This document shows, in pieces, positions 2,141 through 19,530 of a stretch of DNA of 32,000 nt. Source of the DNA: Nitratidesulfovibrio vulgaris str. Hildenborough (GTDB lineage: Bacteria > Desulfobacterota > Desulfovibrionia > Desulfovibrionales > Desulfovibrionaceae); the NCBI RefSeq assembly GCF_000195755.1, contig NC_002937.3:1800001-1832000 (forward strand), in the 5' to 3' direction. Each line of letters starts with the position of its first letter. Position 1 is the first letter of the stretch. The position numbers and the translations under genes were made by a program. The notes under the pieces were generated by a model that did not search any database, had not been told where the DNA came from, and saw only the letters and a program-made list of their open reading frames with translations.

Positions 2141-5100
2141 ATGTTCGAACTCACTGGCGAAGACATCTCCCGCCTGAACGACAAAGACCTCCGAACCCTT
2201 GTGGCCAAGCTTTGTGAGGCAGAGTTGCGGCGTGTCGGGCTTCCGGTATCAGCGCTGACAGCCGGAGGCGACCAGAACGCCCCGGATGGTGGCATTGATG
2301 TGCGAATAGCCCTCCCCCACCACGACAAGGCGACGGACTTCATCCCCAGACCAGACACGGGGTTTCAGGTCAAAGTCCCGGATATGCCGGAAGGCGCTAT
2401 CACCGCAGAGATGTGCCCCAAGGGTGTTCTCCGCCCTGTGATTCAGGAGTTGGCCCGCAAACACGGGGCATACGTCATCGTCAGTTCGCATGGATCAACA
2501 GCGGATGCGCCTCTTAGAAACCGCATTACTGCGATGCAGGATGCGGCCAAGAGCGTTCCTGCTTTGCCAGACCTCCACGTTGATTTTTATGACAGAAATC
2601 GTCTGGCGACTTGGGTCAATCAGTATGCTGGGGTCGCGGCGTGGGTGCAGAAGCAGCTTGGCAAGCCGATGTCGGGGTGGCAATCCTATGGCAACTGGTC
2701 CGGTCACCCCAACCAGATAGACACGGGCTACATATCCGACGCAACGTGCCGCATGTACGATACTCGAAGTGCAAAAGCGGGAAGCCTCACCGTTGAGACA
2801 GGCATAGCCCGTATTCGCGAAGTACTCGCCAATCCGGGCGGTGTTGTCCGTCTCATCGGCCTATCTGGGGTGGGCAAGACACGGCTTGTCGAAGCCCTGT
2901 TCGATGACAGGGTGTTGAAAAATGCACTTAGCCAAGCATGGGTTGTCTACACCGATATAGCACACGAACCCACCCCGCCTCCTCGCGACCGCATCCATCG
3001 CTTCATCCAAGAGCGTCAAAGAGCGATTGTAGTCGTGGATAACTGTCCGCCTGCTGCCCATCGGAACCTCGTTCAAGTCACTTCAGTCCCTGACAGCCCG
3101 GTAAGTCTACTCACCGTGGAGTACGATGTTGGAGAAGATGAACCTGAAGGAACCGAAGTCTTCCGTCTTGAGGCCGCATCCGAGGAAGTCATTGAGCAAC
3201 TTGTCGAGCGAGTCGCACCCGGTATATCCCAAGTAGACCGCCGCAGGATATCTGAATTCTCTGGCGGAAATGCGCGCATCGCACTCGCGTTGATCCGGAC
3301 GATCGACCGCCACGAAAGTGTAGCCCACCTTTCAGATAAGGATCTGTTTGAGCGTCTCTTTCATCAGCGCCATTCAGAAAGTGACACCCTGCTTCGTGCT
3401 GGCGAAGCATGTGCACTGGTCTACTCCTTCGATGGGGAAACAACGGAAGGTCCAGATGCCGAACTCCCCATTCTGGCTCAACTGGCCGACCTTTCCGTCA
3501 ACCAACTGCATCGACATGTCCAGGAACTCAAGAAACGGGAATTGATCCAGCAACGCAGCACATGGAGGGCATTGCTGCCACATGCCTTGGCGAACAAACT
3601 CGCTCAGAGCGCCCTTGAACACATCCCGCCAGCAACTCTCACAAAAGTCATGGTGGATACTGCCCCAGAGCGCTTGCTCCGATCCTTTTCCCGCAGGCTA
3701 GGCTACCTGCACAACTGCCACGAAGCACAACGCATCGTTGGCACATGGCTCGCTGAAGGCGGCCTCTTGGGAAACGTCGCCACCCTATCTCCTCTGCAAT
3801 GGGACATGTTTCACAACGTTGCGCCTGTGCTTCCTGAAGCAGCCTTGGCAGCCATGGAACGGGCCTTCGCATCTCATGACGCCCTCATGATAGTAGACCT
3901 TCACAACCCATACCGGCACGAATGGACATCCCTGCTTTCTAAGCTTGCCTTCGATGCCGCGTTATTTGACAGGGCTGCGGGTCTGCTTGCACGTTTTGTC
4001 ATTGCTGAACCGCAAGGGCACAACAATTCATCTAATGAGCAGTTCACGGGGCTTTTCAAACTCCACCTCTCCGGAACATATGCCTCTGTGCAACAGCGCT
4101 TACAGGTCGTCGACACCCTATTGCGTGCAACGAAAATCCGGACAAAACAGGTCGGTCTCGACGCGTTGAATTCTATGTTAGAGGCTTGGCACTTCTCTTC
4201 TATTTGTCTCTTCGAATTCGGTGCTCGCCCCCGTGACTTCGGTTGGCATCCAAAGAATTACAGTGAGGCCGCAGGCTGGTACCACGCCGTACTCAGTTTC
4301 ATCTCAGAGAGAATGGTCGCTGACGACAACCTTGCCGGTCAACTCGCTTCCATTGTAGCCAATCGTTTTCGTGGACTTTGGGTCAAGGCCCGTATGTACG
4401 ATGAACTTGAATCGTTGGCCACGAAACTAGCGGAAAAGGGAAGCTGGATAGAGGGGTGGGTTAGCATTCGAAGAACACTGAAATATCATGCCTCGAAAAT
4501 GCCAGAAGATACCCTGAAACGACTACAGCACCTCGAAGCAACGCTGCGACCGACGGAGTTGCTGGAGCAAGCCAGGGCCTATGTGTTGCTTCCACAATCC
4601 TTAGCATTCGACATCGTGGAAGCCGAAGGAGAGGATGGGGAAGAGTACGATTACGATGCGCTTCGAAAAGCCGATGATAGAGCTGAAGAGCTTGGGCGTA
4701 TAATCGCGTCAAGGCCTGAAGTCCTTGGCCAACTTCTCGTCGACCTCGTGCGGGGGCGCGAAGCCGGGCGACGTTGGCATTTCGGTGTTGGTCTCGCAAC
4801 AGCTTCAGCAGATATGGATGCGATGTGGCAAACCCTGACATCGGCTTTTAGGTCTGTTCCCGAACAAGAGCGAAACACATTTGTACTGCGGGGCTTCCTT
4901 GCCGGGGCGTCCCGCCATGCAGCCGACAAGGTCGCTGCATTTCTCGACGCCGCTGTCACCGACCCCGTACTTGGTCAACATTTCCTTTATCTACAGTGTG
5001 CCGTTACGATTGATGAGCAGGGACTCCAACGCCTATTTGAGGCACTACGAGTGAATCTCGCTCCTATCGAAACGTTCCGGTGTCTTCCGGAAAACATGAT

Positions 5101-5941
5101 GACCAACACGATATCCCCTACCAATCTCCAGCGATTCCTCCTTGAGTTAGCAGCACGTCCAGATGGAACGGTAATCGCCATCCATATTTGGAGTATGCAG
5201 TTCTGCATTCTGGATGGGAAAAAAAGGATCGTCACACCAGAGCTTATACGCTGCGGGCGTGACCTCCTCATGCGATACGACTTTAAAAATGTGAATACCC
5301 ATGACGAGTGCGATTTTGCAGCGATTTTTCGAGAATGTTTAACTGAAATCGACAGTGATACGTTTGTTCAAGCAATGTGCCACACACTCAATGAGGCAAT
5401 CTCTAATGAAGTGGAGTCTTCATACTACTATTCAGAAATAATTGAAGAACTTTTCATCACTTCACCATCGATTGCGCTGAACACATTCATGCTGCAAGGA
5501 AATGAAAAGATTGCAGAGATAGTTGTGCACTGCCGGTGGGAACATGACGCCTATCCTCTTGAGAAGGTGCCACTGAATACCTTGCTTGACTGGGCCAGTG
5601 AAGAGCCACAAGCGCGATTCCCTGCTATGGCATCCGCGACGCCTCTTTTTACGAACCCGCCTGACCAAGCCGCGAAACTTTCCCCCCTTGCTCTTAGCCT
5701 GATTGATGCCGCGCCAGACAAAGGCACCATGCTTGATTGTTTCCAGCGCAATTCAACCCCAGACAATTGGCTCAACCCCTTCGCTCCATCTCTGGACGAG
5801 TGCAGGGCAGCCCTAGCCCCGCTCATGAATCATCCCGAACCTGTTGTCGCCTCGCGTGCGCGTGAGTGGAGTCAAGAACTGGCAAGAGAGGCTGAACAGG
5901 AACGCTTACGGGAACGCAAGAGAGATGAGCGCTTCGAGTAG
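2141..5941 (+). CDS. Avs-like antiviral STAND NTPase with N-terminal Mrr-like PD-(D/E)xK nuclease domain and long helical C-terminal region
   Basis: 1266 aa. The N-terminus has D49-GGIDV ... GFQ76-V-K78 ... YVIVSSHG (Mrr-type D...(E/Q)xK core). Walker A is LIGLSGVGKTRLVEAL (aa 238-253) and Walker B is AIVVVDNCP (D300). About 900 aa of leucine-rich helical sequence follow, with an AT-rich tail. Confidence 0.65.
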   Translation: MFELTGEDISRLNDKDLRTLVAKLCEAELRRVGLPVSALTAGGDQNAPDGGIDVRIALPHHDKATDFIPRPDTGFQVKVPDMPEGAITAEMCPKGVLRPVIQELARKHGAYVIVSSHGSTADAPLRNRITAMQDAAKSVPALPDLHVDFYDRNRLATWVNQYAGVAAWVQKQLGKPMSGWQSYGNWSGHPNQIDTGYISDATCRMYDTRSAKAGSLTVETGIARIREVLANPGGVVRLIGLSGVGKTRLVEALFDDRVLKNALSQAWVVYTDIAHEPTPPPRDRIHRFIQERQRAIVVVDNCPPAAHRNLVQVTSVPDSPVSLLTVEYDVGEDEPEGTEVFRLEAASEEVIEQLVERVAPGISQVDRRRISEFSGGNARIALALIRTIDRHESVAHLSDKDLFERLFHQRHSESDTLLRAGEACALVYSFDGETTEGPDAELPILAQLADLSVNQLHRHVQELKKRELIQQRSTWRALLPHALANKLAQSALEHIPPATLTKVMVDTAPERLLRSFSRRLGYLHNCHEAQRIVGTWLAEGGLLGNVATLSPLQWDMFHNVAPVLPEAALAAMERAFASHDALMIVDLHNPYRHEWTSLLSKLAFDAALFDRAAGLLARFVIAEPQGHNNSSNEQFTGLFKLHLSGTYASVQQRLQVVDTLLRATKIRTKQVGLDALNSMLEAWHFSSICLFEFGARPRDFGWHPKNYSEAAGWYHAVLSFISERMVADDNLAGQLASIVANRFRGLWVKARMYDELESLATKLAEKGSWIEGWVSIRRTLKYHASKMPEDTLKRLQHLEATLRPTELLEQARAYVLLPQSLAFDIVEAEGEDGEEYDYDALRKADDRAEELGRIIASRPEVLGQLLVDLVRGREAGRRWHFGVGLATASADMDAMWQTLTSAFRSVPEQERNTFVLRGFLAGASRHAADKVAAFLDAAVTDPVLGQHFLYLQCAVTIDEQGLQRLFEALRVNLAPIETFRCLPENMMTNTISPTNLQRFLLELAARPDGTVIAIHIWSMQFCILDGKKRIVTPELIRCGRDLLMRYDFKNVNTHDECDFAAIFRECLTEIDSDTFVQAMCHTLNEAISNEVESSYYYSEIIEELFITSPSIALNTFMLQGNEKIAEIVVHCRWEHDAYPLEKVPLNTLLDWASEEPQARFPAMASATPLFTNPPDQAAKLSPLALSLIDAAPDKGTMLDCFQRNSTPDNWLNPFAPSLDECRAALAPLMNHPEPVVASRAREWSQELAREAEQERLRERKRDERFE

Positions 5942-12173: not shown

Positions 12174-12199
12174 GCCCCCGTCAGGGGGGCTATTTTTTT
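12174..12199 (+). terminator. Rho-independent terminator upstream of the dcm operon
   Basis: GCCCCC-gtcag-GGGGGC followed by TATTTTTTT. Confidence 0.7.
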
Positions 12200-12265: not shown

Positions 12266-13375
12266 ATGAAGCAGCACACGCCCAAACATACGCCCGCCAA
12301 AGCGGTCGACCTCTTCTGCGGTGCGGGGGGGTTCAGTCTTGCCGCCCGCAATCTGGGTATAGAGGTCGTTGCCGCACTTGAGAACAACCACTATGCTGCC
12401 GCGACATACCGCCATAACTTCATAGAAGGCTCCCGCCGCCCCCCCCTGCTCTTTGAGGGCGACATTCTGGCCATATCGCCAGAAGCCTTCATGCAGGCTG
12501 CAAACCTCACTCCCGGCGGAGTCGATATCATCATGGGCGGCCCTCCCTGTCAGGGTTTTTCCACGCATCGCATCAAAGGGGCAGGGATAGACGACCCCCG
12601 CAACACGCTGCTTCTGCGTTACTTCGAATATGTGCAGGCCATTCGCCCGCGCTATTTTCTTGTCGAGAATGTGCCCGGCCTACTTTGGCCTAGGCACGAA
12701 GAGTACCTGCAAAGATTCTACAAACTGGCTACAGAGGCAGGCTACCATGTCTCTCCACCGCAGGTGCTCAACGCACGCGATTATGGCGTTCCGCAAAACC
12801 GAAAGCGCGTTTTCATTCTCGGCACAGCTGGGGGGCACACTCTGCCAGATTGGCCCCCACGCCCCACACACTTCGCCCCTGAAAGCTCTCAGGTTCGTGC
12901 AGAGGGTCTCCCTGCTTGGTGTACAGCAGCACAAGTTTTCGCCACTGAACTGGCAAACGACGACCCAAACGCCATACACCTCAACCATCGTCCAGAAATG
13001 GTAGAGGTGTTCCGCAGCACCCCGCTCAATGGTGGCAGCCGGCAGCAATCATGCCGCGTTCTTCCCTGCCACCGGAATCATAACGGTCATAAGGATGTAT
13101 ACGGCCGCATCAACCCCGACGCTCCCGGCCCGACCATGACCACAGCTTGCACCAATCCTTCCAAGGGGCGCTTTCTTCACCCTACGCAGCACCACGGCAT
13201 CACAGTGCGTCACGCTGCTCGCTTTCAAACCTTTCCGGAGACGTTCACCTTCAAAGGTGGCATCATGGCTGCCAGCGCACAGGTGGGCAATGCTGTGCCC
13301 ATAGACCTTGGCATGGCTGTCATACGCCCGCTACTAAGCGCTTTACCCGCCTGCATAGCACGCCAAAGTCAGTAG
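12266..13375 (+). CDS. dcm: DNA (cytosine-5)-methyltransferase
   Basis: Motif I DLFCGAGG, motif IV GGPPCQGFS (Cys95), motif VI FLVENVPGL, motif VIII QNRKRVFILG, TV dipeptide (GITVRHAARFQTFPETFTFKG), motif X GNAVP. Confidence 0.95.
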   Translation: MKQHTPKHTPAKAVDLFCGAGGFSLAARNLGIEVVAALENNHYAAATYRHNFIEGSRRPPLLFEGDILAISPEAFMQAANLTPGGVDIIMGGPPCQGFSTHRIKGAGIDDPRNTLLLRYFEYVQAIRPRYFLVENVPGLLWPRHEEYLQRFYKLATEAGYHVSPPQVLNARDYGVPQNRKRVFILGTAGGHTLPDWPPRPTHFAPESSQVRAEGLPAWCTAAQVFATELANDDPNAIHLNHRPEMVEVFRSTPLNGGSRQQSCRVLPCHRNHNGHKDVYGRINPDAPGPTMTTACTNPSKGRFLHPTQHHGITVRHAARFQTFPETFTFKGGIMAASAQVGNAVPIDLGMAVIRPLLSALPACIARQSQ

Positions 13376-13415: not shown

Positions 13416-16361
13416 ATGTTGAACACAGCCAGCTTCCAGACACGCGCCCGGGCCATAGACCACCTAGGCCGTGGGCAGATAGCAGACGCCCCCACCGCCA
13501 TCAGCGAACTATGGAAGAACGCCTACGACGCATACGCCCGAGGCGTTGAACTACACATTCACTCTGGCAACGTCGTCGTCGCCTCTATCTGCGACAATGG
13601 GCACGGCATGGATGCCGAGACCCTTAGCTCGAAATGGCTTGTGGTTGGCACAGAGAGTAAAGTCGCCTCTCCCGTCCCTGTAGAAGACCGCTTCGGTCTG
13701 CCAGAACGTGCCCGACTTGGTGAAAAGGGCATCGGCCGGCTTTCCGCTGCTTTTCTGTCTCCCGTCACACTTGTTGTCAGCAAACGCGTAGGGCAGCCCT
13801 ATGCTGCCCTGCTTGTAGACTGGCGCTTCTTCGAGAACCCATACCTGTTCATCAACGACGTTAGGTTCCCCCTTGTCGAATTCGGAGAACTTAAAGAGTT
13901 TCCTGCGTTGTTTGCGCAGATGTTCGAAGAACTCAAAGCCAATCTGCAATGGGGCTCAGCCTCACCCCATACCGCCCACCTCGCTGCCGCATGGGACAGG
14001 TTCGACGCCATAGAACGCGAACAAAACCCCAATGCCCCCACAACCCGAGAAGCCATTCTGTCACTCTCCCCTGAAGGGCTCATCAAATGGGACCACTTCT
14101 CTCCTTGGTGGCAGTTGATGCACAAGGCAGTAGAGGGTGACGACGTACACGGCACCGCACTTTTTACTATCGGCGCGAATACCGAACTTGCATGCTGGGT
14201 CACTGACGACGAATATGAAAGCCCAGATATACAAAAGGTCAAAGAAACTCTGACCGAAACACTGGTCAGTTTCGTCGACCCGTTTGAAGACACTCCCATC
14301 GCCTTCGACTATGCCGTAGTCGTTCACAAACCCGGCAAAGCTGACTTCATTCCCGTTTCTTCCGAAGAAGTTTTTGACATCCAAGAGCTTCGTAGCCTCG
14401 AACATGTCATCGAAGGCGAATTTGACACCGCTGGCAACTTTCAGGGCAGAATAACGGCTTTCGGCAAAGACCGTGGCGAATGCTTTCTGCCATCTCCATC
14501 AGTTTTCACACAACGTGGCAAGGATAGCGTCGGGCCATTCAGGTTTTGCCTTGGCACGTTTGAGCAAGACAAAAAGAACACTACACACTCAGACGAAGAA
14601 TTCGAGTATCACTCGAGTCAAGTTAATAAATATGGCGGGATATGCATCCACCGTGATGGTCTCCGGGTCATGCCCTATGGGCGTGAGGATGGGGACTTAT
14701 TTAGGATGGAATTCCGCCGTTCAAAACATGCTGGACGAGAGTTTTTTGTCTATCGCCGCAGCTTCGGTCGTTTGGCGATTACCAGTCAGCACAACCCCAA
14801 CCTCAAAGATAAGGCTGGCCGTGAAGGACTGGTTGTCAACAAAGCCCGCCGTGAATTCGAACGACTTGTCATCAATCTGTTGATGTATGTTGCACGCGAA
14901 TATTTTGGAACGGCATCCACTATCCGCAATCAAGAACTCCCTGGCATTCAGAAGGCACGCCAAAGGCAGATGCGGGCAGCAGAAACGGCCCGCAAGCGCA
15001 ACCAGAAGAATTTCGTCCGGGCACTCAAAGAGAAGTTACCCTTGGCGCTTGAAGCCAGCACGCGGGCAGAAGCCGGGGCTGACAAACTGGAACAGACCCT
15101 AGCATGCAAAGCGTACGACGACCTGCCTGCCATCAAGATGGAACTCGACGCATTGCAGGGGCTGCGCGACGACCTGCGCATCCCCAACCGCCCAGATGAG
15201 CTTGGTAGCCAAGAAGAAGACTATAGAAGATACCGCGATGCCTATGCCTTGTTCTGCGCCACCATTGACAAGCTCAAGTCCATGCTCGCCCGGTGTGAGG
15301 CAGAAGGTCTGCTAGGCGACCCTAAACGTATCGCCACATCAAAGTTCTATAGCAACGAAGCGCGCATCTCCAGCCAGATAGGCAAAGCCCTGTCTACCAT
15401 CACCTCTAGCCTAGATGCGCTACGCACCACATGGGAAGAGAACGCCAGAGAAGACAGAACGGCGTACCGGCGCAAGTCCACGGAATTCGTCAGCATGCTC
15501 GAAGCTGGGCAAGGCTTGACCCCGGTACTCGACTACCTAGACAAAGTACACACCGAACTCAGTGACGAACTGAACCTCAAATACGACGGCATCATCCATA
15601 GCCTAGAACAACTCGTCGAAGGTGTAGACCTTGAAGGTGCCTTCTTTCATGTAGATGAGGTGAACCGGTCGCTTGAAGAAAAAGTATCCATGCTCAACTC
15701 TGTGGCACAACTCGGCATCAGTGTCGAAATCATCGGCCATGAGTTAGAAGCACTCGAATCTCAGGTCACGCGCTACCTCAAACTTATGCCCAAAGAGGTG
15801 CGCGCCCTCAAAAGTTACACCCTTGCGTTCGAAGCGCACCGTGCCCTTGTAGACCGACTGCGATTTCTGGCACCTCTGCGAAAAACTTCGTACCGCAGCC
15901 GCATCGCCATCTCGGGTAAAGAGATTGCCAAGTACGTCAAAGAGTTCTTCGGCACCACATTCGAGCAATGCCGCATCCAGTTCGAAGTTACCCCTGCGTT
16001 TGAAGGTTTCTCCATCAGAGACCTACCATCCCGCATCTACCCCACCTTCATCAACCTTGTGAACAATGCTCTCTACTGGGTGCAACGTGGTGAAAGAAGG
16101 ATAATCCGCCTCGACTTTGTGCAAGGCAAAGCCATTGTCGCAGATAGCGGACCGGGTGTTGATGAAGACGACCAGAAGCACCTGTTCGAATTGTTCTTCA
16201 CAAAACGAACCAACGGGCGCGGTGTGGGGTTATACCTCTGTCGCGAAAACCTTGCAGTTGCCCGCCACAGCATCCGCTACGCAACAGATAATGACCCCGA
16301 AGTCCTCGAAGGGGCTAACTTCATCATCGAATTCCACGAGGTTGAACATGTCTCCCGCTAA
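13416..16361 (+). CDS. Double-GHKL protein: N-terminal MORC/HATPase_c_3-like ATPase fused to a C-terminal histidine-kinase core (no TM or known sensor domain)
   Basis: N-terminal Bergerat motifs: ELWKN35AYDA, D60NGHGMD, G102EKGIGRLS, and later GGICIHRDGLRVMPYG (as in prokaryotic MORC-like proteins). A coiled-coil-like middle follows. C-terminal kinase boxes: H-box SVEIIGH775ELEAL, N-box NLVNN884ALYW, G1 D910SGPGVD, F-box FELFFT, G2 G934RGVGLYL. Confidence 0.75.
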   Translation: MLNTASFQTRARAIDHLGRGQIADAPTAISELWKNAYDAYARGVELHIHSGNVVVASICDNGHGMDAETLSSKWLVVGTESKVASPVPVEDRFGLPERARLGEKGIGRLSAAFLSPVTLVVSKRVGQPYAALLVDWRFFENPYLFINDVRFPLVEFGELKEFPALFAQMFEELKANLQWGSASPHTAHLAAAWDRFDAIEREQNPNAPTTREAILSLSPEGLIKWDHFSPWWQLMHKAVEGDDVHGTALFTIGANTELACWVTDDEYESPDIQKVKETLTETLVSFVDPFEDTPIAFDYAVVVHKPGKADFIPVSSEEVFDIQELRSLEHVIEGEFDTAGNFQGRITAFGKDRGECFLPSPSVFTQRGKDSVGPFRFCLGTFEQDKKNTTHSDEEFEYHSSQVNKYGGICIHRDGLRVMPYGREDGDLFRMEFRRSKHAGREFFVYRRSFGRLAITSQHNPNLKDKAGREGLVVNKARREFERLVINLLMYVAREYFGTASTIRNQELPGIQKARQRQMRAAETARKRNQKNFVRALKEKLPLALEASTRAEAGADKLEQTLACKAYDDLPAIKMELDALQGLRDDLRIPNRPDELGSQEEDYRRYRDAYALFCATIDKLKSMLARCEAEGLLGDPKRIATSKFYSNEARISSQIGKALSTITSSLDALRTTWEENAREDRTAYRRKSTEFVSMLEAGQGLTPVLDYLDKVHTELSDELNLKYDGIIHSLEQLVEGVDLEGAFFHVDEVNRSLEEKVSMLNSVAQLGISVEIIGHELEALESQVTRYLKLMPKEVRALKSYTLAFEAHRALVDRLRFLAPLRKTSYRSRIAISGKEIAKYVKEFFGTTFEQCRIQFEVTPAFEGFSIRDLPSRIYPTFINLVNNALYWVQRGERRIIRLDFVQGKAIVADSGPGVDEDDQKHLFELFFTKRTNGRGVGLYLCRENLAVARHSIRYATDNDPEVLEGANFIIEFHEVEHVSR

Positions 16362-18114
16362 TGCTGCAATCATCGATGAAGCCTACATATCCCCCATCAA
16401 AAGCATACTTTTTATAGACGACAAATTTCCAACTCACGCAGACTTGCTCAAGAAATCGCTCACCACCGACACAGAAGAAGAGCATATTGAAGCAAACCTG
16501 CGCGATATTGCTACTGAAAACCAATTTGACCATGAAGAAGACAACACTCACAATGGAAATATAGACATCGAAGAAATACAAGAAGAACATGACCGTAGTA
16601 TAGATGAGCATGTCCTACGATTAACACAATCTTGCAGGGAAAATGGCTACATATTTGACGTAGAAAACAACCTCGAATGCATCGAAAGAGATGAATATGC
16701 TTTTATAAACAAATCAGACCTTGTTGTGCTAGACTACTTCCTAACAGAAGGTGAAGATTCATCTCACGCTCTTAAAATAATACATAGCCTTGCACAATCA
16801 AAAAGATACAATCTAATTATCGTCCATTCTACAAAAGAAAAACAAGACGTTGCATCTGAGATTTTATTCTCAATGAAGAATATTACGTATGAAAATACCG
16901 AACGCGAAGAACTCGCGAATGCCGCTGCTATAGAAGCTATTGTCAATGAAAACATACGTCATATACTAGACGGCTCAGAAGAACATATAAAAACGATATG
17001 CAGCCTTGCTGGTTCAGCATCAAAAGAAAAGGTCATTTATTTCACAAATCAAATAATTAGTAATAATTTTCGGAGTACAACAAAATCTAAATCTGACCTC
17101 GTCTTACAAAGCGATATCGCTTCAAGCACCACTCCATGGATAGCTGCAAAAAATGCTTTTATTGTTGTCACACAAAAAGATATAGCTTCTGAACAAGACA
17201 TCAATAACCTCATACAAGAGCTGAAAACTGCGCTTACGGAATACGACCCGGGAATCATCACAAAGGCACTACATAAATTTGCAAATATATCAAAAGAAAA
17301 CATTTACGAGATTCTTAACTCATCATTCTCAACACCAGAAATCCGTGCTGCGGCACTATTAACAGCCCTTAACGGAATTTCAAGCATAGAGACACATCCT
17401 CACAAGGCTAACATTATCGCAAATAGAATCACACATGCCATACTTTCTGCAGCAAGCACAGGCATTGCATCTAAAGCAGACCAGTTTTGCATAAACTGCA
17501 TTGACTCGCTACAAATAGAAAATGAAGCCACAATCCATAGAGCTTGCACTACTGCTGAGAACGCAAACTGCACCATGGATAAAATCTTCCTTCATGCAAA
17601 CGCCATGGCTTGTTGCGAACAAAAACCTCACCACTACATAACTACAGGCAGTATCTTTACGCAGGAAGACAAATCATGGATGTGCGTAACACCATCGTGC
17701 GACCTGGCTCGAGGTGAAGACTTTAACGCAAGCAAAATAATATTTATAGAAGCCATTAAGCTTACTAAAATTACTGATAGCAACAGAATAGCAAAGGCAC
17801 TCAAAGATGCTCATAAAGGGTTATATATTTTTGTAAAGACTACGACAGGCGTAGATGTGTACTCTCCATACAACGATAGTAAACCGAATCTACACATTGA
17901 TAACTTTTTTATTCGTGGAACAACATTTCTCACCATTGACGACACTATAAGGCTATACACGGTTGAAGCTGACGAAGTGGGATATTCCGTCATGTCTCAA
18001 CAAAGCAACGTCATTGCTCAACTCAGGCCAGACTACGCAAGCAGATTCCTGTCAGAAAAAGGCGCGTGGAAATCCCGCATCGGGGTCGACTTCTTTCAGT
18101 ATAAACCAGAGTAG
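16348..18114 (+). CDS. Receiver (REC)-like domain protein with acidic insertion and uncharacterised C-terminal domain
   Basis: Track ORF 16117..18114 trimmed to the ATG at 16348, a 14-nt overlap with the upstream stop at 16359-16361. SILFID24D25KFP, DLVVLD129YFL and NLIIVHS161T162 reproduce the REC acidic pocket, phospho-acceptor and Thr/Ser positions. aa 30-95 form a D/E-rich insert. aa ~175-588 have no motif I recognise. The gene is strongly AT-rich. Confidence 0.6.
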   Translation: MSPANAAIIDEAYISPIKSILFIDDKFPTHADLLKKSLTTDTEEEHIEANLRDIATENQFDHEEDNTHNGNIDIEEIQEEHDRSIDEHVLRLTQSCRENGYIFDVENNLECIERDEYAFINKSDLVVLDYFLTEGEDSSHALKIIHSLAQSKRYNLIIVHSTKEKQDVASEILFSMKNITYENTEREELANAAAIEAIVNENIRHILDGSEEHIKTICSLAGSASKEKVIYFTNQIISNNFRSTTKSKSDLVLQSDIASSTTPWIAAKNAFIVVTQKDIASEQDINNLIQELKTALTEYDPGIITKALHKFANISKENIYEILNSSFSTPEIRAAALLTALNGISSIETHPHKANIIANRITHAILSAASTGIASKADQFCINCIDSLQIENEATIHRACTTAENANCTMDKIFLHANAMACCEQKPHHYITTGSIFTQEDKSWMCVTPSCDLARGEDFNASKIIFIEAIKLTKITDSNRIAKALKDAHKGLYIFVKTTTGVDVYSPYNDSKPNLHIDNFFIRGTTFLTIDDTIRLYTVEADEVGYSVMSQQSNVIAQLRPDYASRFLSEKGAWKSRIGVDFFQYKPE

Positions 18115-18136: not shown

Positions 18137-18162
18137 CTGCCCCGCTCCGGCGGGGCTTTCTT
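18137..18162 (+). terminator. Rho-independent terminator ending the dcm operon
   Basis: CTGCCCCGC-tccg-GCGGGGC-TTTCTT. Identical 26-mer to 19505-19530. Confidence 0.7.
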
Positions 18163-18242
18163 CTTCCTATTCCTGCTGCAATTTTACTAAATCGTCTTTC
18201 TTGTATATCCATATCTGCACACCATCTATGACAGGTGCTCCT

Positions 18243-19118
18243 ATGGGTATTTCCGCACTCTTCCTGTTCTGTCTCATTCTTGGTGGCGGCTTCTACGCCG
18301 GGGTTCAGTGGCAACAACAGCGCACACCTCCCCGTGTGCCTCCCGCGCAGCCCGCGCCCCCTTCATACTCACCCCCACCCTACCTCGAAGACCAACCGCC
18401 CCCGCGCCGACAGCCAGCCCGACGCAAGGCAGACTGGCCATCCTCTTCTAGCCGTCAAACAGAACCAGAACGCTACGAGGCCAAGCTGCGAAGCGACCCG
18501 GTGTTGCTCAACACACTTAAGGCCGAACTTATGGCACGAGAGCACCACCTCATGCGGGTGCTCAACAACTTCATCGAGGGCAACACAGGCCAGCACATGC
18601 AGGCCGACCCGTTCTACCTCTACCCAGAGATTGCCAGCACCAGCCCGGAAGAATTCCTCAACACGCTGGGCACACGCCTTCAGCACACCAACTTCCCCGA
18701 CCTAGCCGACGACGGTAAGGGGTGGGTCTATGTTCTTGCAAACTATGCCATGCCCGGTGTGGTCAAAATCGGCTATTCCACAAAGCCAGCCCTACGCGCC
18801 GCAGAGCTATCCGTCTTGCGCACCGTAGATGAGAACGGGCTTAGCGTGACCAACCGGACATCACTCCCCCGCCCCTTCAAGCTCCAATTCTGTGTGTTGC
18901 GCCCTAACGCTCGCGCTTCAGAGCAGTACATCCATGAACTGCTCGCCCCCTACAACATACGGGAAGAAGGAGGTATGGCAGGTACGGAGTTCTTCGCCCT
19001 GTCAGTAGAGCAAGCTTACGACGCGCCCTACTACACCTTCCCAGATGAAACCTTCCACTTTGCCGCCTTTCACGACTCATGTTTCTTCTTCGGTAGAAAG
19101 GACGACACATTACAGTGA
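18243..19118 (+). CDS. Membrane-anchored T5orf172/MUG113 (GIY-YIG-related) domain protein
   Basis: N-terminal hydrophobic helix ISALFLFCLILGGGFYAGV, then a Pro-rich linker. The C-terminus has GWVYVLANYAMPGVVKIGYSTKPALRAAEL ... SEQYIHELLAPY ... GTEFFAL, typical of the T5orf172 domain. Start uncertain (TTG 18201, ATG 18228 or ATG 18243). Confidence 0.6.
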   Translation: MGISALFLFCLILGGGFYAGVQWQQQRTPPRVPPAQPAPPSYSPPPYLEDQPPPRRQPARRKADWPSSSSRQTEPERYEAKLRSDPVLLNTLKAELMAREHHLMRVLNNFIEGNTGQHMQADPFYLYPEIASTSPEEFLNTLGTRLQHTNFPDLADDGKGWVYVLANYAMPGVVKIGYSTKPALRAAELSVLRTVDENGLSVTNRTSLPRPFKLQFCVLRPNARASEQYIHELLAPYNIREEGGMAGTEFFALSVEQAYDAPYYTFPDETFHFAAFHDSCFFFGRKDDTLQ

Positions 19119-19146
19119 ATCTTTAAATATGAATTAGGAGGTGCTT

Positions 19147-19467
19147 ATGAATCTTTATGATCGTTTTTTTAACGGAGAAATTCAATTGTGGAAAACGTAT
19201 TGGATTGGATTAGTTGCCGTCAACGTCATCACCCAACTCATTATTAAAATATTGTCCAACGCAAATGCTAATTTTATGCTGATATTGATCATGAGCATAT
19301 CACTGCTCCTATGGTCAGCAGCAGCCTTAATTGCCACATGGAGAAGCGCAAAAAAGTATACAGGTTCTATTTATTTCAAATCATTAGCACAAATCGCTGT
19401 TGTATTTGGGTGGATATCTCTTTTCGCAAACTGCAGCGCAGTGCTTGTATATTTTAAAAATCAGTAG
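19147..19467 (+). CDS. Small hydrophobic protein (about 3 TM helices), AT-rich
   Basis: AGGAGG at 19136-19141, 5 nt before the ATG at 19147. Hydrophobic segments: TYWIGLVAVNVITQLIIKIL, FMLILIMSISLLLWSAAALIA, IAVVFGWISLFANCSAVLVYF. Confidence 0.55.
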   Translation: MNLYDRFFNGEIQLWKTYWIGLVAVNVITQLIIKILSNANANFMLILIMSISLLLWSAAALIATWRSAKKYTGSIYFKSLAQIAVVFGWISLFANCSAVLVYFKNQ

Positions 19468-19504: not shown

Positions 19505-19530
19505 CTGCCCCGCTCCGGCGGGGCTTTCTT
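19505..19530 (+). terminator. Rho-independent terminator (second copy of the 26-mer)
   Basis: CTGCCCCGCTCCGGCGGGGCTTTCTT, identical to 18137-18162. Confidence 0.7.

Follow-up and report, generated by a model that had tools for sequence, protein, structure and literature searches.

A Response_reg_2 regulator with an unclassified, recombined output module in a methylase-kinase cassette of Nitratidesulfovibrio vulgaris Hildenborough

The genome of Nitratidesulfovibrio vulgaris str. Hildenborough holds, within a stretch of 32,000 nt (NC_002937.3, forward-strand positions 1,800,001 to 1,832,000; hereafter the window), three genes in the same direction that encode a C5 methyltransferase, a 981-aa kinase-like protein and a 588-aa regulator, and the question raised by this locus is what the regulator does. 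A sequence-only reading by a model had described the regulator as a receiver-like protein with an acidic insert, an orphan C-terminal domain and a foreign, AT-rich composition, and had proposed it as the output or effector subunit. Judged from profile matches and gene order, the regulator is a member of a described family and part of a three-gene cassette, and it is the sole candidate output subunit found there. New here are the domain boundaries, the invariant residues of the output module, the lack of a fold relative and the recombined effector core. With moderate confidence, we favour the view that the regulator is a phospho-gated effector of a methylation-linked defence system carried on a three-gene mobile cassette, while any specific effector activity is much less likely than this overall picture.

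The receiver assignment is not a chance match, because residues 17-192 of the regulator score far above the cut-off for PF19192 (Response_reg_2; E = 4.7e-17, 63.1 bits vs 27). The definition of PF19192 and of its kinase counterpart PF19191 goes back to Bellieny-Rabelo, Pretorius and Moleleki (2021, Genome Biol Evol; PMC8011034), who reported HEF_HK genes to be linked with Response_reg_2 genes in 91.6% across 644 regions, frequently with C5 methylases upstream, and who proposed the HEF_HK family as descendants of the paraMORC ATPases of Iyer et al. 2008. The window cassette resembles their description in that both Pfam models match above cut-off, the order is methylase, kinase, regulator, the kinase combines HATPase_c_3, HEF_HK and HATPase_c, and the receiver has the D-D/D/T/K residues and tolerates loop extensions. 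There is no difference in kind, although the window regulator sits on a divergent branch (a word-index search gave 7 other clusters with 28% identity or more, and the PHROG family model did not match) and stands apart from the family by its unusually long and acidic insert, its AT-richness and its recombined effector core. The output module of ~290 aa was not analysed in that study (PMC8011034).

The word-index search yielded 16 relatives. When searched exhaustively with a profile, the family grew to 971 clusters (50% identity), of which 441 reached E <= 1e-30; among the 150 best-scoring clusters, almost every one was 560-650 aa long and matched end to end. An alignment of the best 150 family members was the basis of the regulator conservation counts below, and the search for related loci was run with a 16-sequence alignment. 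The C-terminal part had been called an orphan, a claim that did not survive: the same fixed full-length architecture recurs in ~970 clusters and the family is described in Pfam and in the 2021 paper. Pfam searches for alternative output domains in 10 family members of unusual length found PF19192 only. At the locus level, all 24 distinct loci had the kinase gene immediately 5' of the regulator gene, 18-19 of them also had a methylase gene as the next one upstream of the kinase gene, and no fourth gene, whether an extra nuclease or an effector, was common to the surveyed loci. The three genes occur as a compact cassette in many unrelated genomes, and the kinase and regulator families are both present in PHROGs, of unassigned function. 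One surveyed locus (L002, 3910-9908) is located in a prophage between terminase and portal genes; there, all three cassette genes are AT-rich (G+C at third codon positions, GC3, of 0.34-0.37 vs 0.84 for the phage genes), so that the whole cassette, and not the regulator alone, is foreign to its carrier.

The AlphaFold model of the full-length regulator (predicted local distance difference test, pLDDT, 90.4; predicted template modelling score 0.87) has a (beta-alpha)5 order, in keeping with the receiver fold proposed earlier, and its receiver strands terminate at D24/D25, D129, S161 and K277. We confirmed that D24, D25, D129 and S161/T162 are located in strand contexts, as had been claimed. Together with K277 they complete the receiver residue set (D24/D25, D129, S161, K277), which is 88-100% conserved across the 150 homologues: D129 and K277 are present in all, D24 in 148, D25 is near-invariant, and position 161 is Thr in 144 and Ser in 6. 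The beta5 strand with the invariant Lys (aa 270-277) follows a helical insert and is accompanied by conserved F271 (147/150) and W264 (144/150). As this 86-aa insert separates alpha4 from beta5, the receiver extends to ~aa 300; the distance from T161 to K277 has a family median of 136 residues. The region from ~aa 175 to 588 had been described as unrecognised, which stands from aa 303 onwards, where no known family was found, and fails for aa 175-300, which belong to the receiver.

As in CheY-like receivers (PF00072), the acidic pair, the phospho-acceptor Asp, the Ser/Thr and the Lys are predicted to end beta1, beta3, beta4 and beta5 in a (beta-alpha)5 order; unlike them, the window regulator has a ~60-residue insert before beta2, 86 residues before beta5 and an extra Asp (D104) at the end of beta2. 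Direct similarity to CheY-like receivers was weak: hhalign against CheY paired D129 with D57 and S161 with T87 at E = 0.08, Foldseek receiver matches had probabilities of 0.3-0.8 with E above 0.1, and the PF00072 profile did not match the regulator at E <= 1, while one homologue (P0042) gave a sub-threshold PF00072 match (E = 0.007). D104 itself (16657-16659) is near-invariant (94%), lies in the motif CDVEN and is outside the canonical receiver residue set.

The partner protein has the parts that a phosphodonor would need. The H-box GHE (H775) and both sets of ATP-binding motifs are kept across 22 loci, and PF19191 matches the window kinase at 25.6 bits vs a cut-off of 24.1. Since the H-box, the ATP motifs and the receiver residues are intact, kinase and regulator both look phosphotransfer-competent from their motifs. 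This soluble kinase carries a MORC-type ATPase in the place of a sensor domain, followed by a conserved middle region before the DHp domain, and its N-terminus also resembles the BbrUII/HgiDII restriction enzyme family (NF050001, E = 1.7e-16). It shares with the paraMORC/MORC GHKL ATPases (Iyer, Abhiman and Aravind 2008, PMC2292703) the MutL/MORC-type GHKL domain with its ATP motifs, the conserved middle region and the linkage to a cytosine methylase on mobile DNA. Unlike them, the window protein adds a DHp domain and a kinase ATPase and pairs with a receiver protein, whereas the described paraMORCs pair with helicases or carry fused nuclease domains (PMC2292703). In the methylase, kinase and regulator, no nuclease domain was identified with Pfam, NCBIfam or PADLOC. 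WonAB, which surfaced through the term paraMORC, is an unrelated system and was ruled out as a relative.

A complete receiver adjoining a kinase is also what an ordinary housekeeping two-component system with a transcription-factor response regulator would have. We regard this explanation as highly unlikely, because the regulator is acidic throughout, output region included (net charge -32), and has no DNA-binding domain: in line with what the sequence-only reading requires, Pfam and NCBIfam found no known DNA-binding output domain, be it helix-turn-helix, winged-helix or other. The soluble kinase with its MORC-type ATPase and the setting of mobile elements and a methylase also speak against it.

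The output region begins near aa 303 and comprises an all-alpha and a beta-rich domain (~290 aa). Within the 150-sequence alignment, whose members share ~20% identity, the invariant residues are D129, K277, N418, G434 and C451, so that three of the five lie in this module. Residues conserved in at least 90% include D24, D104, D124, T161 (Ser in the window), W264, F271, P301, C446 (138/150), P449 (137/150), R577 (149/150), G579 and D581 (142/150); the D452 column holds Asp in 119, Asn in 18 and Glu in 9 homologues. The active centre of the output module is probably built from N418, T432/T433/G434, C446/C451/D452, R560/R566/R577 and D581. A separate model of aa 403-588 was of high predicted quality (pLDDT 92.8). 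We could not assign the fold or the activity of the module to any known family; Pfam searches at E <= 10 with C-terminal fragments of 10 diverse members gave nothing significant. The only hit in the PDB sequence search, a sortase at E = 1.1, was not significant and was absent from the Foldseek lists.

The closest structural neighbours of the beta-rich domain, by weak matches, were toxins. The top two Foldseek PDB matches of the C-terminal model were MazF chains (5cqx_B, E = 0.07; 7bye_F, E = 0.12), both with a probability of 0.84 and template modelling scores of 0.45-0.53 normalised to MazF (0.53 for 7bye_F). The latter chain also appeared in the full-length Foldseek search, and chain 7bye_B of the same entry matches E. 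coli MazF by sequence. The predicted layout of an SH3-like barrel followed by a C-terminal helix agrees in general, and the pattern 'G-x-I/V ... hydrophobic strand-P-x-[T/C]' of the beta-rich domain resembles PemK motifs. The domain could accordingly be read as a divergent MazF/PemK/CcdB-type barrel, that is, a phospho-activated RNase or gyrase poison that aborts infection instead of an enzyme restricting DNA. This is improbable: the Foldseek E-values are not significant and the matches have a root-mean-square deviation of 8-9 A, Pfam found no PemK (PF02452) or CcdB match in 10 diverse members even at E <= 10, and nothing in the domain corresponds to the conserved MazF loop of the R29 type. 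The beta-rich domain is also ~70 residues larger than MazF/PemK toxins and has other conserved residues. As profile-profile comparison shows no similarity, MazF stays a weak structural lead only; the 150-sequence C-terminal profile reached a hhalign probability of at most 0.2% against MazF and against MazF, Kid and EndoA combined (alignments built from seed sequences and retrieved homologues).

Tight linkage to a methylase and a kinase N-terminus like that of BbrUII/HgiDII invite another explanation, in which the C-terminal module is a divergent PD-(D/E)xK restriction endonuclease of a kinase-controlled, Type II-like restriction-modification system. The module has a candidate motif, TPSCD452 followed after 15 residues by E468-A-I-K471, on the strand after an alpha-beta-beta unit. 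A nuclease centre in 'TPSCD...EAIK' was rejected, since the family does not conserve its acidic and Lys positions: the E468 column varies (T, K, R, L, V, E), K471 is basic in only 72%, and D452 is Asp in 79% and Asn in 12%. No nuclease structure was among the Foldseek matches, the lone weak Pfam match to RE_HindVP (E = 0.053 in 1 of 10 members) was not significant, and, as shown below, the effector allele has been swapped at a 100% identical methylase, with methylase type not tracking the regulator. We consider the endonuclease explanation slightly less probable than the toxin barrel.

The composition of the regulator gene and its comparison with close relatives speak to its history. The G+C counts reported earlier were reproduced (16 of 60 nt at 17041-17100, 38 of 60 at 15121-15180). 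GC3 is 0.61 for the methylase, 0.59 for the kinase and 0.65 for the downstream T5orf172 gene vs 0.36 for the regulator. Kinase GC3 exceeds regulator GC3 by 0.23 in the window and by 0.21 in the locus of Nitratidesulfovibrio oxamicus, whereas the median difference over 24 loci is -0.003. AT-richness as a family-wide property, for example one limiting the expression of a toxic gene, was therefore ruled out, and the AT-richness is rather a mark of clade history; we propose that the regulator gene was derived from an AT-rich donor in this lineage.

Methylase, kinase, regulator and T5orf172 genes are likewise the content of two metagenome cassettes, L028/L029 and L031, which are mostly 96-100% identical in nucleotides to the window over the methylase, the kinase and the fourth gene. 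Sliding nucleotide identity of L028 and L031 to the window was 77-93% over the first third of the regulator gene, dropped in the block listed in Table 1, and recovered from ~18030. Within this block, the proportion of synonymous differences (pS) is 0.5-0.98, i.e. saturated, with a nonsynonymous to synonymous rate ratio (dN/dS) below 1, compared to a pS of 0.12-0.17 over aa 1-90. In-place positive selection was therefore ruled out as the source of the divergent block, and the effector core was replaced by recombination rather than by fast evolution in situ. The segment exchanged begins right behind receiver helix alpha4 and stops right ahead of the C-terminal helix; the N-terminal, kinase-proximal part and the conserved C-terminal tail are kept outside it. 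The main kinase contact in two-component systems is receiver helix alpha1, which lies in the kept N-terminal part. Over all locus pairs, the regulator diverges faster than the kinase, and the window/L028 pair is an outlier with 99% identity for the kinase, 100% for the methylase and 67% for the regulator. A second mosaic patch against L031 was observed in the kinase gene (71-89% nucleotide identity; 71-84% at window 14201-14800, between flanks that are mostly 96-100% identical), within the conserved middle region that follows the N-terminal ATPase.

The proposal that the regulator is the output or effector subunit, with a history separate from that of its GC-rich partners, is thus supported in part: the separate history is supported by GC3 and by a divergent block amid near-identical cassettes, and no other output candidate was found. 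It fails for aa 175-300, which are not output.

An allele replacement restricted to one module is the pattern expected if the effector faces counter-defence pressure. An arms-race target accounts for it better than a housekeeping adaptor would, and this bears on the explanation that the regulator is a regulator or adaptor only, whose enzymatically inactive module binds the MORC-like ATPase, the methylase or DNA differently upon phosphorylation. On this view, the cassette's role would be to adjust methylation or chromosome compaction or to govern a nuclease whose gene lies elsewhere. In the output module, no catalytic fold or motif was recognised, signalling control of restriction-modification systems has been speculated upon (PMC8011034), and by the same study's account the neighbourhood of some family members holds various unlinked nucleases (HNH_2, Vsr and others). 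Against an adaptor stand the invariance of N418, G434 and C451 and near-invariance of R577/D581 at ~20% identity, which have the look of an active or ligand site, and the fact that the three genes travel alone in many unrelated genomes without a shared fourth gene. We consider the adaptor unlikely, less so than the toxin barrel.

The acidic insert was confirmed. Residues 39-92 contain 19 D/E vs 3 K/R, and the D25-to-D129 spacing is 104 residues, which is 60 above the 44 residues from D13 to D57 in CheY and matches the excess of ~60 aa noted before. Since the family median is 69 residues, ~25 of the excess residues are family-typical and ~36 lineage-specific. The insert follows a short helix behind beta1 and precedes the helix into beta2, and it is the most acidic stretch at its position among the 150 family members (99th percentile). 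Its core at aa 55-71 is predicted to be disordered (AlphaFold pLDDT < 50). In the alignment, aa 42-77 are gapped in over half of the family members, the D25-to-D104 length varies from 4 to 108 residues, and constraint on the insert is relaxed between close alleles (ratio of nonsynonymous to synonymous differences, pN/pS, ~0.6-0.9). The sequence-only reading had suggested that the insert could be autoinhibitory or mimic nucleic acid.

In the phospho-gated defence effector that we favour, the methylase would mark the host's own DNA and the N-terminal MORC-type ATPase of the kinase protein would sense unmodified or invading DNA. Sensing would lead to autophosphorylation at H775 and, as the motifs suggest, phosphotransfer to D129, and phosphorylation may act at the alpha4-beta5-alpha5 face of the receiver to free or assemble the aa 303-588 module, which would then be a toxic or restricting effector. 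Detocs (Rousset et al. 2023, bioRxiv 10.1101/2023.01.24.525353) is the closest system in probable working mode: its histidine kinase, which is cytoplasmic, phosphorylates a receiver fused with a non-DNA-binding effector, this transfer gates the defence effector, and effectors are swapped within the family. It is a precedent for a defence effector gated by kinase-to-receiver phosphotransfer. The window cassette is not a member: Detocs (DtcA TPR-kinase, DtcB receiver, DtcC receiver-PNP) is without the methylase that the window cassette has, and the latter has no TPR, no standalone receiver (DtcB) and no PNP. A more specific form, in which the output module is an unclassified effector fold that performs the kill or restrict step of a widespread methylation-linked two-component immunity and has been recombined as a target of phage counter-defence, is put forward tentatively.

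Several observations weigh against a defence effector. The module has no recognisable catalytic fold or motif, and the variable E468 column counts here as well as against the endonuclease. It had no significant match in Pfam, NCBIfam or PDB sequence searches, Foldseek gave nothing at E <= 1e-3 (full model vs PDB and BFVD, aa 403-588 model vs PDB), and PADLOC has no model for the regulator. The aa 303-588 module may be a non-toxic scaffold, and a simple charge count shows no basic surface on it. Methylase and regulator identity are uncorrelated across loci (Spearman 0.04) and the effector was swapped with the methylase unchanged, so the effector is probably blind to the methylase target sequence; with an effector that ignores this sequence, the favoured mechanism does not account for the self/non-self distinction. 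In the literature searched, we found bioinformatic work only and no experiment on the HEF_HK/Response_reg_2 family. DefensePredictor (2026 paper) lists an unvalidated predicted HATPase + REC system, which may or may not be this cassette.

Table 1. Positions of the cassette genes, their domains and the associated sequence elements in the window.
Feature	Coordinates (nt)	Strand	Residues and sites	Basis
C-5 cytosine DNA methyltransferase, first cassette gene	12266..13375	+		PF00145 E = 1.4e-59; TIGR00675
Histidine-kinase-like protein, 981 aa	13416..16361	+		PF13589, PF19191, PF02518
N-terminal MORC/MutL-type GHKL ATPase of kinase		+	aa 27-139; motifs 13506-13532, 13593-13610, 13719-13745	PF13589
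DHp domain (HEF_HK) of kinase		+	aa 765-827; H775 at 15738-15740	PF19191
C-terminal kinase ATPase domain		+	aa 872-974; N, G1, G2 boxes 16053-16079, 16143-16160, 16215-16232	PF02518
Kinase/regulator junction	16338..16361	+	GAGG 16338-16341; ATG 16348; kinase TAA 16359-16361; 14-nt overlap	
Response-regulator-like protein, 588 aa, Response_reg_2 family	16348..18114	+		PF19192 match
Receiver beta1 to alpha4	16396..16875	+	aa 17-176; D24/D25 16417-16422; D129 (GAC) 16732-16734; S161 16828-16830	PF19192, AlphaFold
Acidic insert	16465..16623	+	~aa 40-92; disordered core aa 55-71 (16510-16560)	AlphaFold
Mainly helical insert, alpha4 to beta5	16876..17133	+	aa 177-262 (86 aa)	AlphaFold helices 192-240
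Receiver beta5 + alpha5	17134..17253	+	aa 263-302; K277 at 17176-17178	strand 270-276, helix 285-299 (AlphaFold)
All-alpha domain	17254..17613	+	aa 303-422; N418 at 17599-17601	AlphaFold, pLDDT mostly > 90
Beta-rich domain + C-terminal helix and tail	17614..18111	+	aa 423-588	AlphaFold
Beta-rich domain motifs		+	TTG434 17638-17658; C446-x-x-P449-x-C451-D452 17683-17703; QLRxxYAxR 18019-18045; SRIGVDF 18073-18093	150-homologue alignment
Replaced allele block	16880..18030	+	~aa 178-561	40-77% nt identity, one 30-nt window 90%; flanks mostly 96-100%
Terminator-like hairpin GCCCCGCTCCGGCGGGGC, then T-rich run	18137..18166	+		23 nt past regulator stop codon

The genes of the cassette are closely spaced (Table 1). 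The kinase gene starts 40 nt after the methylase end, and the overlap behind the translational coupling that the sequence-only reading had proposed was confirmed: the 588-aa ORF starts inside the 3' end of the kinase gene with a 14-nt overlap, and a GAGG lies 6 nt 5' of its ATG. Overlaps of 8-14 nt between kinase and regulator recur among called or annotated genes of the surveyed loci L001, L002, L003, L004, L028, L029 and L031. The operon likely ends at 18137-18166, because a strong terminator-like hairpin and a T-rich run are found there. A further terminator-like hairpin GCCCCCGTCAGGGGGGC with a T run (12174-12190) lies ~75 nt upstream of the methylase start, which fits the three cassette genes being their own transcription unit.

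The island that carries the cassette also has a tyrosine integrase, an AbiC-like gene and helix-turn-helix genes resembling repressors. Two perfect 26-nt copies of CTGCCCCGCTCCGGCGGGGCTTTCTT, a terminator-like hairpin in direct repeat, lie at 18137-18162 and 19505-19530 with the T5orf172 gene and a short AT-rich ORF between them, an arrangement that looks like a two-gene module inserted beside the cassette terminator. The first of these ORFs (18201-19118, 305 aa) encodes a protein that is hydrophobic and rich in proline at its N-terminal end and carries T5orf172 (PF10544), a GIY-YIG-related domain, at its C-terminal end; it matches the PADLOC candidate PDC-S57. A T5orf172 gene is found 3' of the regulator in the window, L028, L029 and L031, and not in the other surveyed loci. 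The second (19141-19467, 108 aa) has hydrophobic stretches, forms with a GC of 0.36 a second AT-rich patch in the GC-rich island, and had no significant family match. Upstream on the same island are an AbiC-like ORF (PF16872; 7385-8563, local GC ~0.45) and a 1266-aa ORF without a Pfam match (2141-5941), both of which may be further defence genes.

Cassettes of this type are widespread, with ~970 clusters at 50% identity in many bacterial groups and in prophages. The window and L028 are a natural allele pair in which methylase, kinase and flanks are alike and the effector core differs. If the favoured reading is true, the family would be a second one among defence systems, independent of Detocs, to use His-to-Asp phosphotransfer, and the first such family tied to methylation self-marking and a MORC-type sensor. 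It would also bear on how MORC ATPases read the state of DNA.

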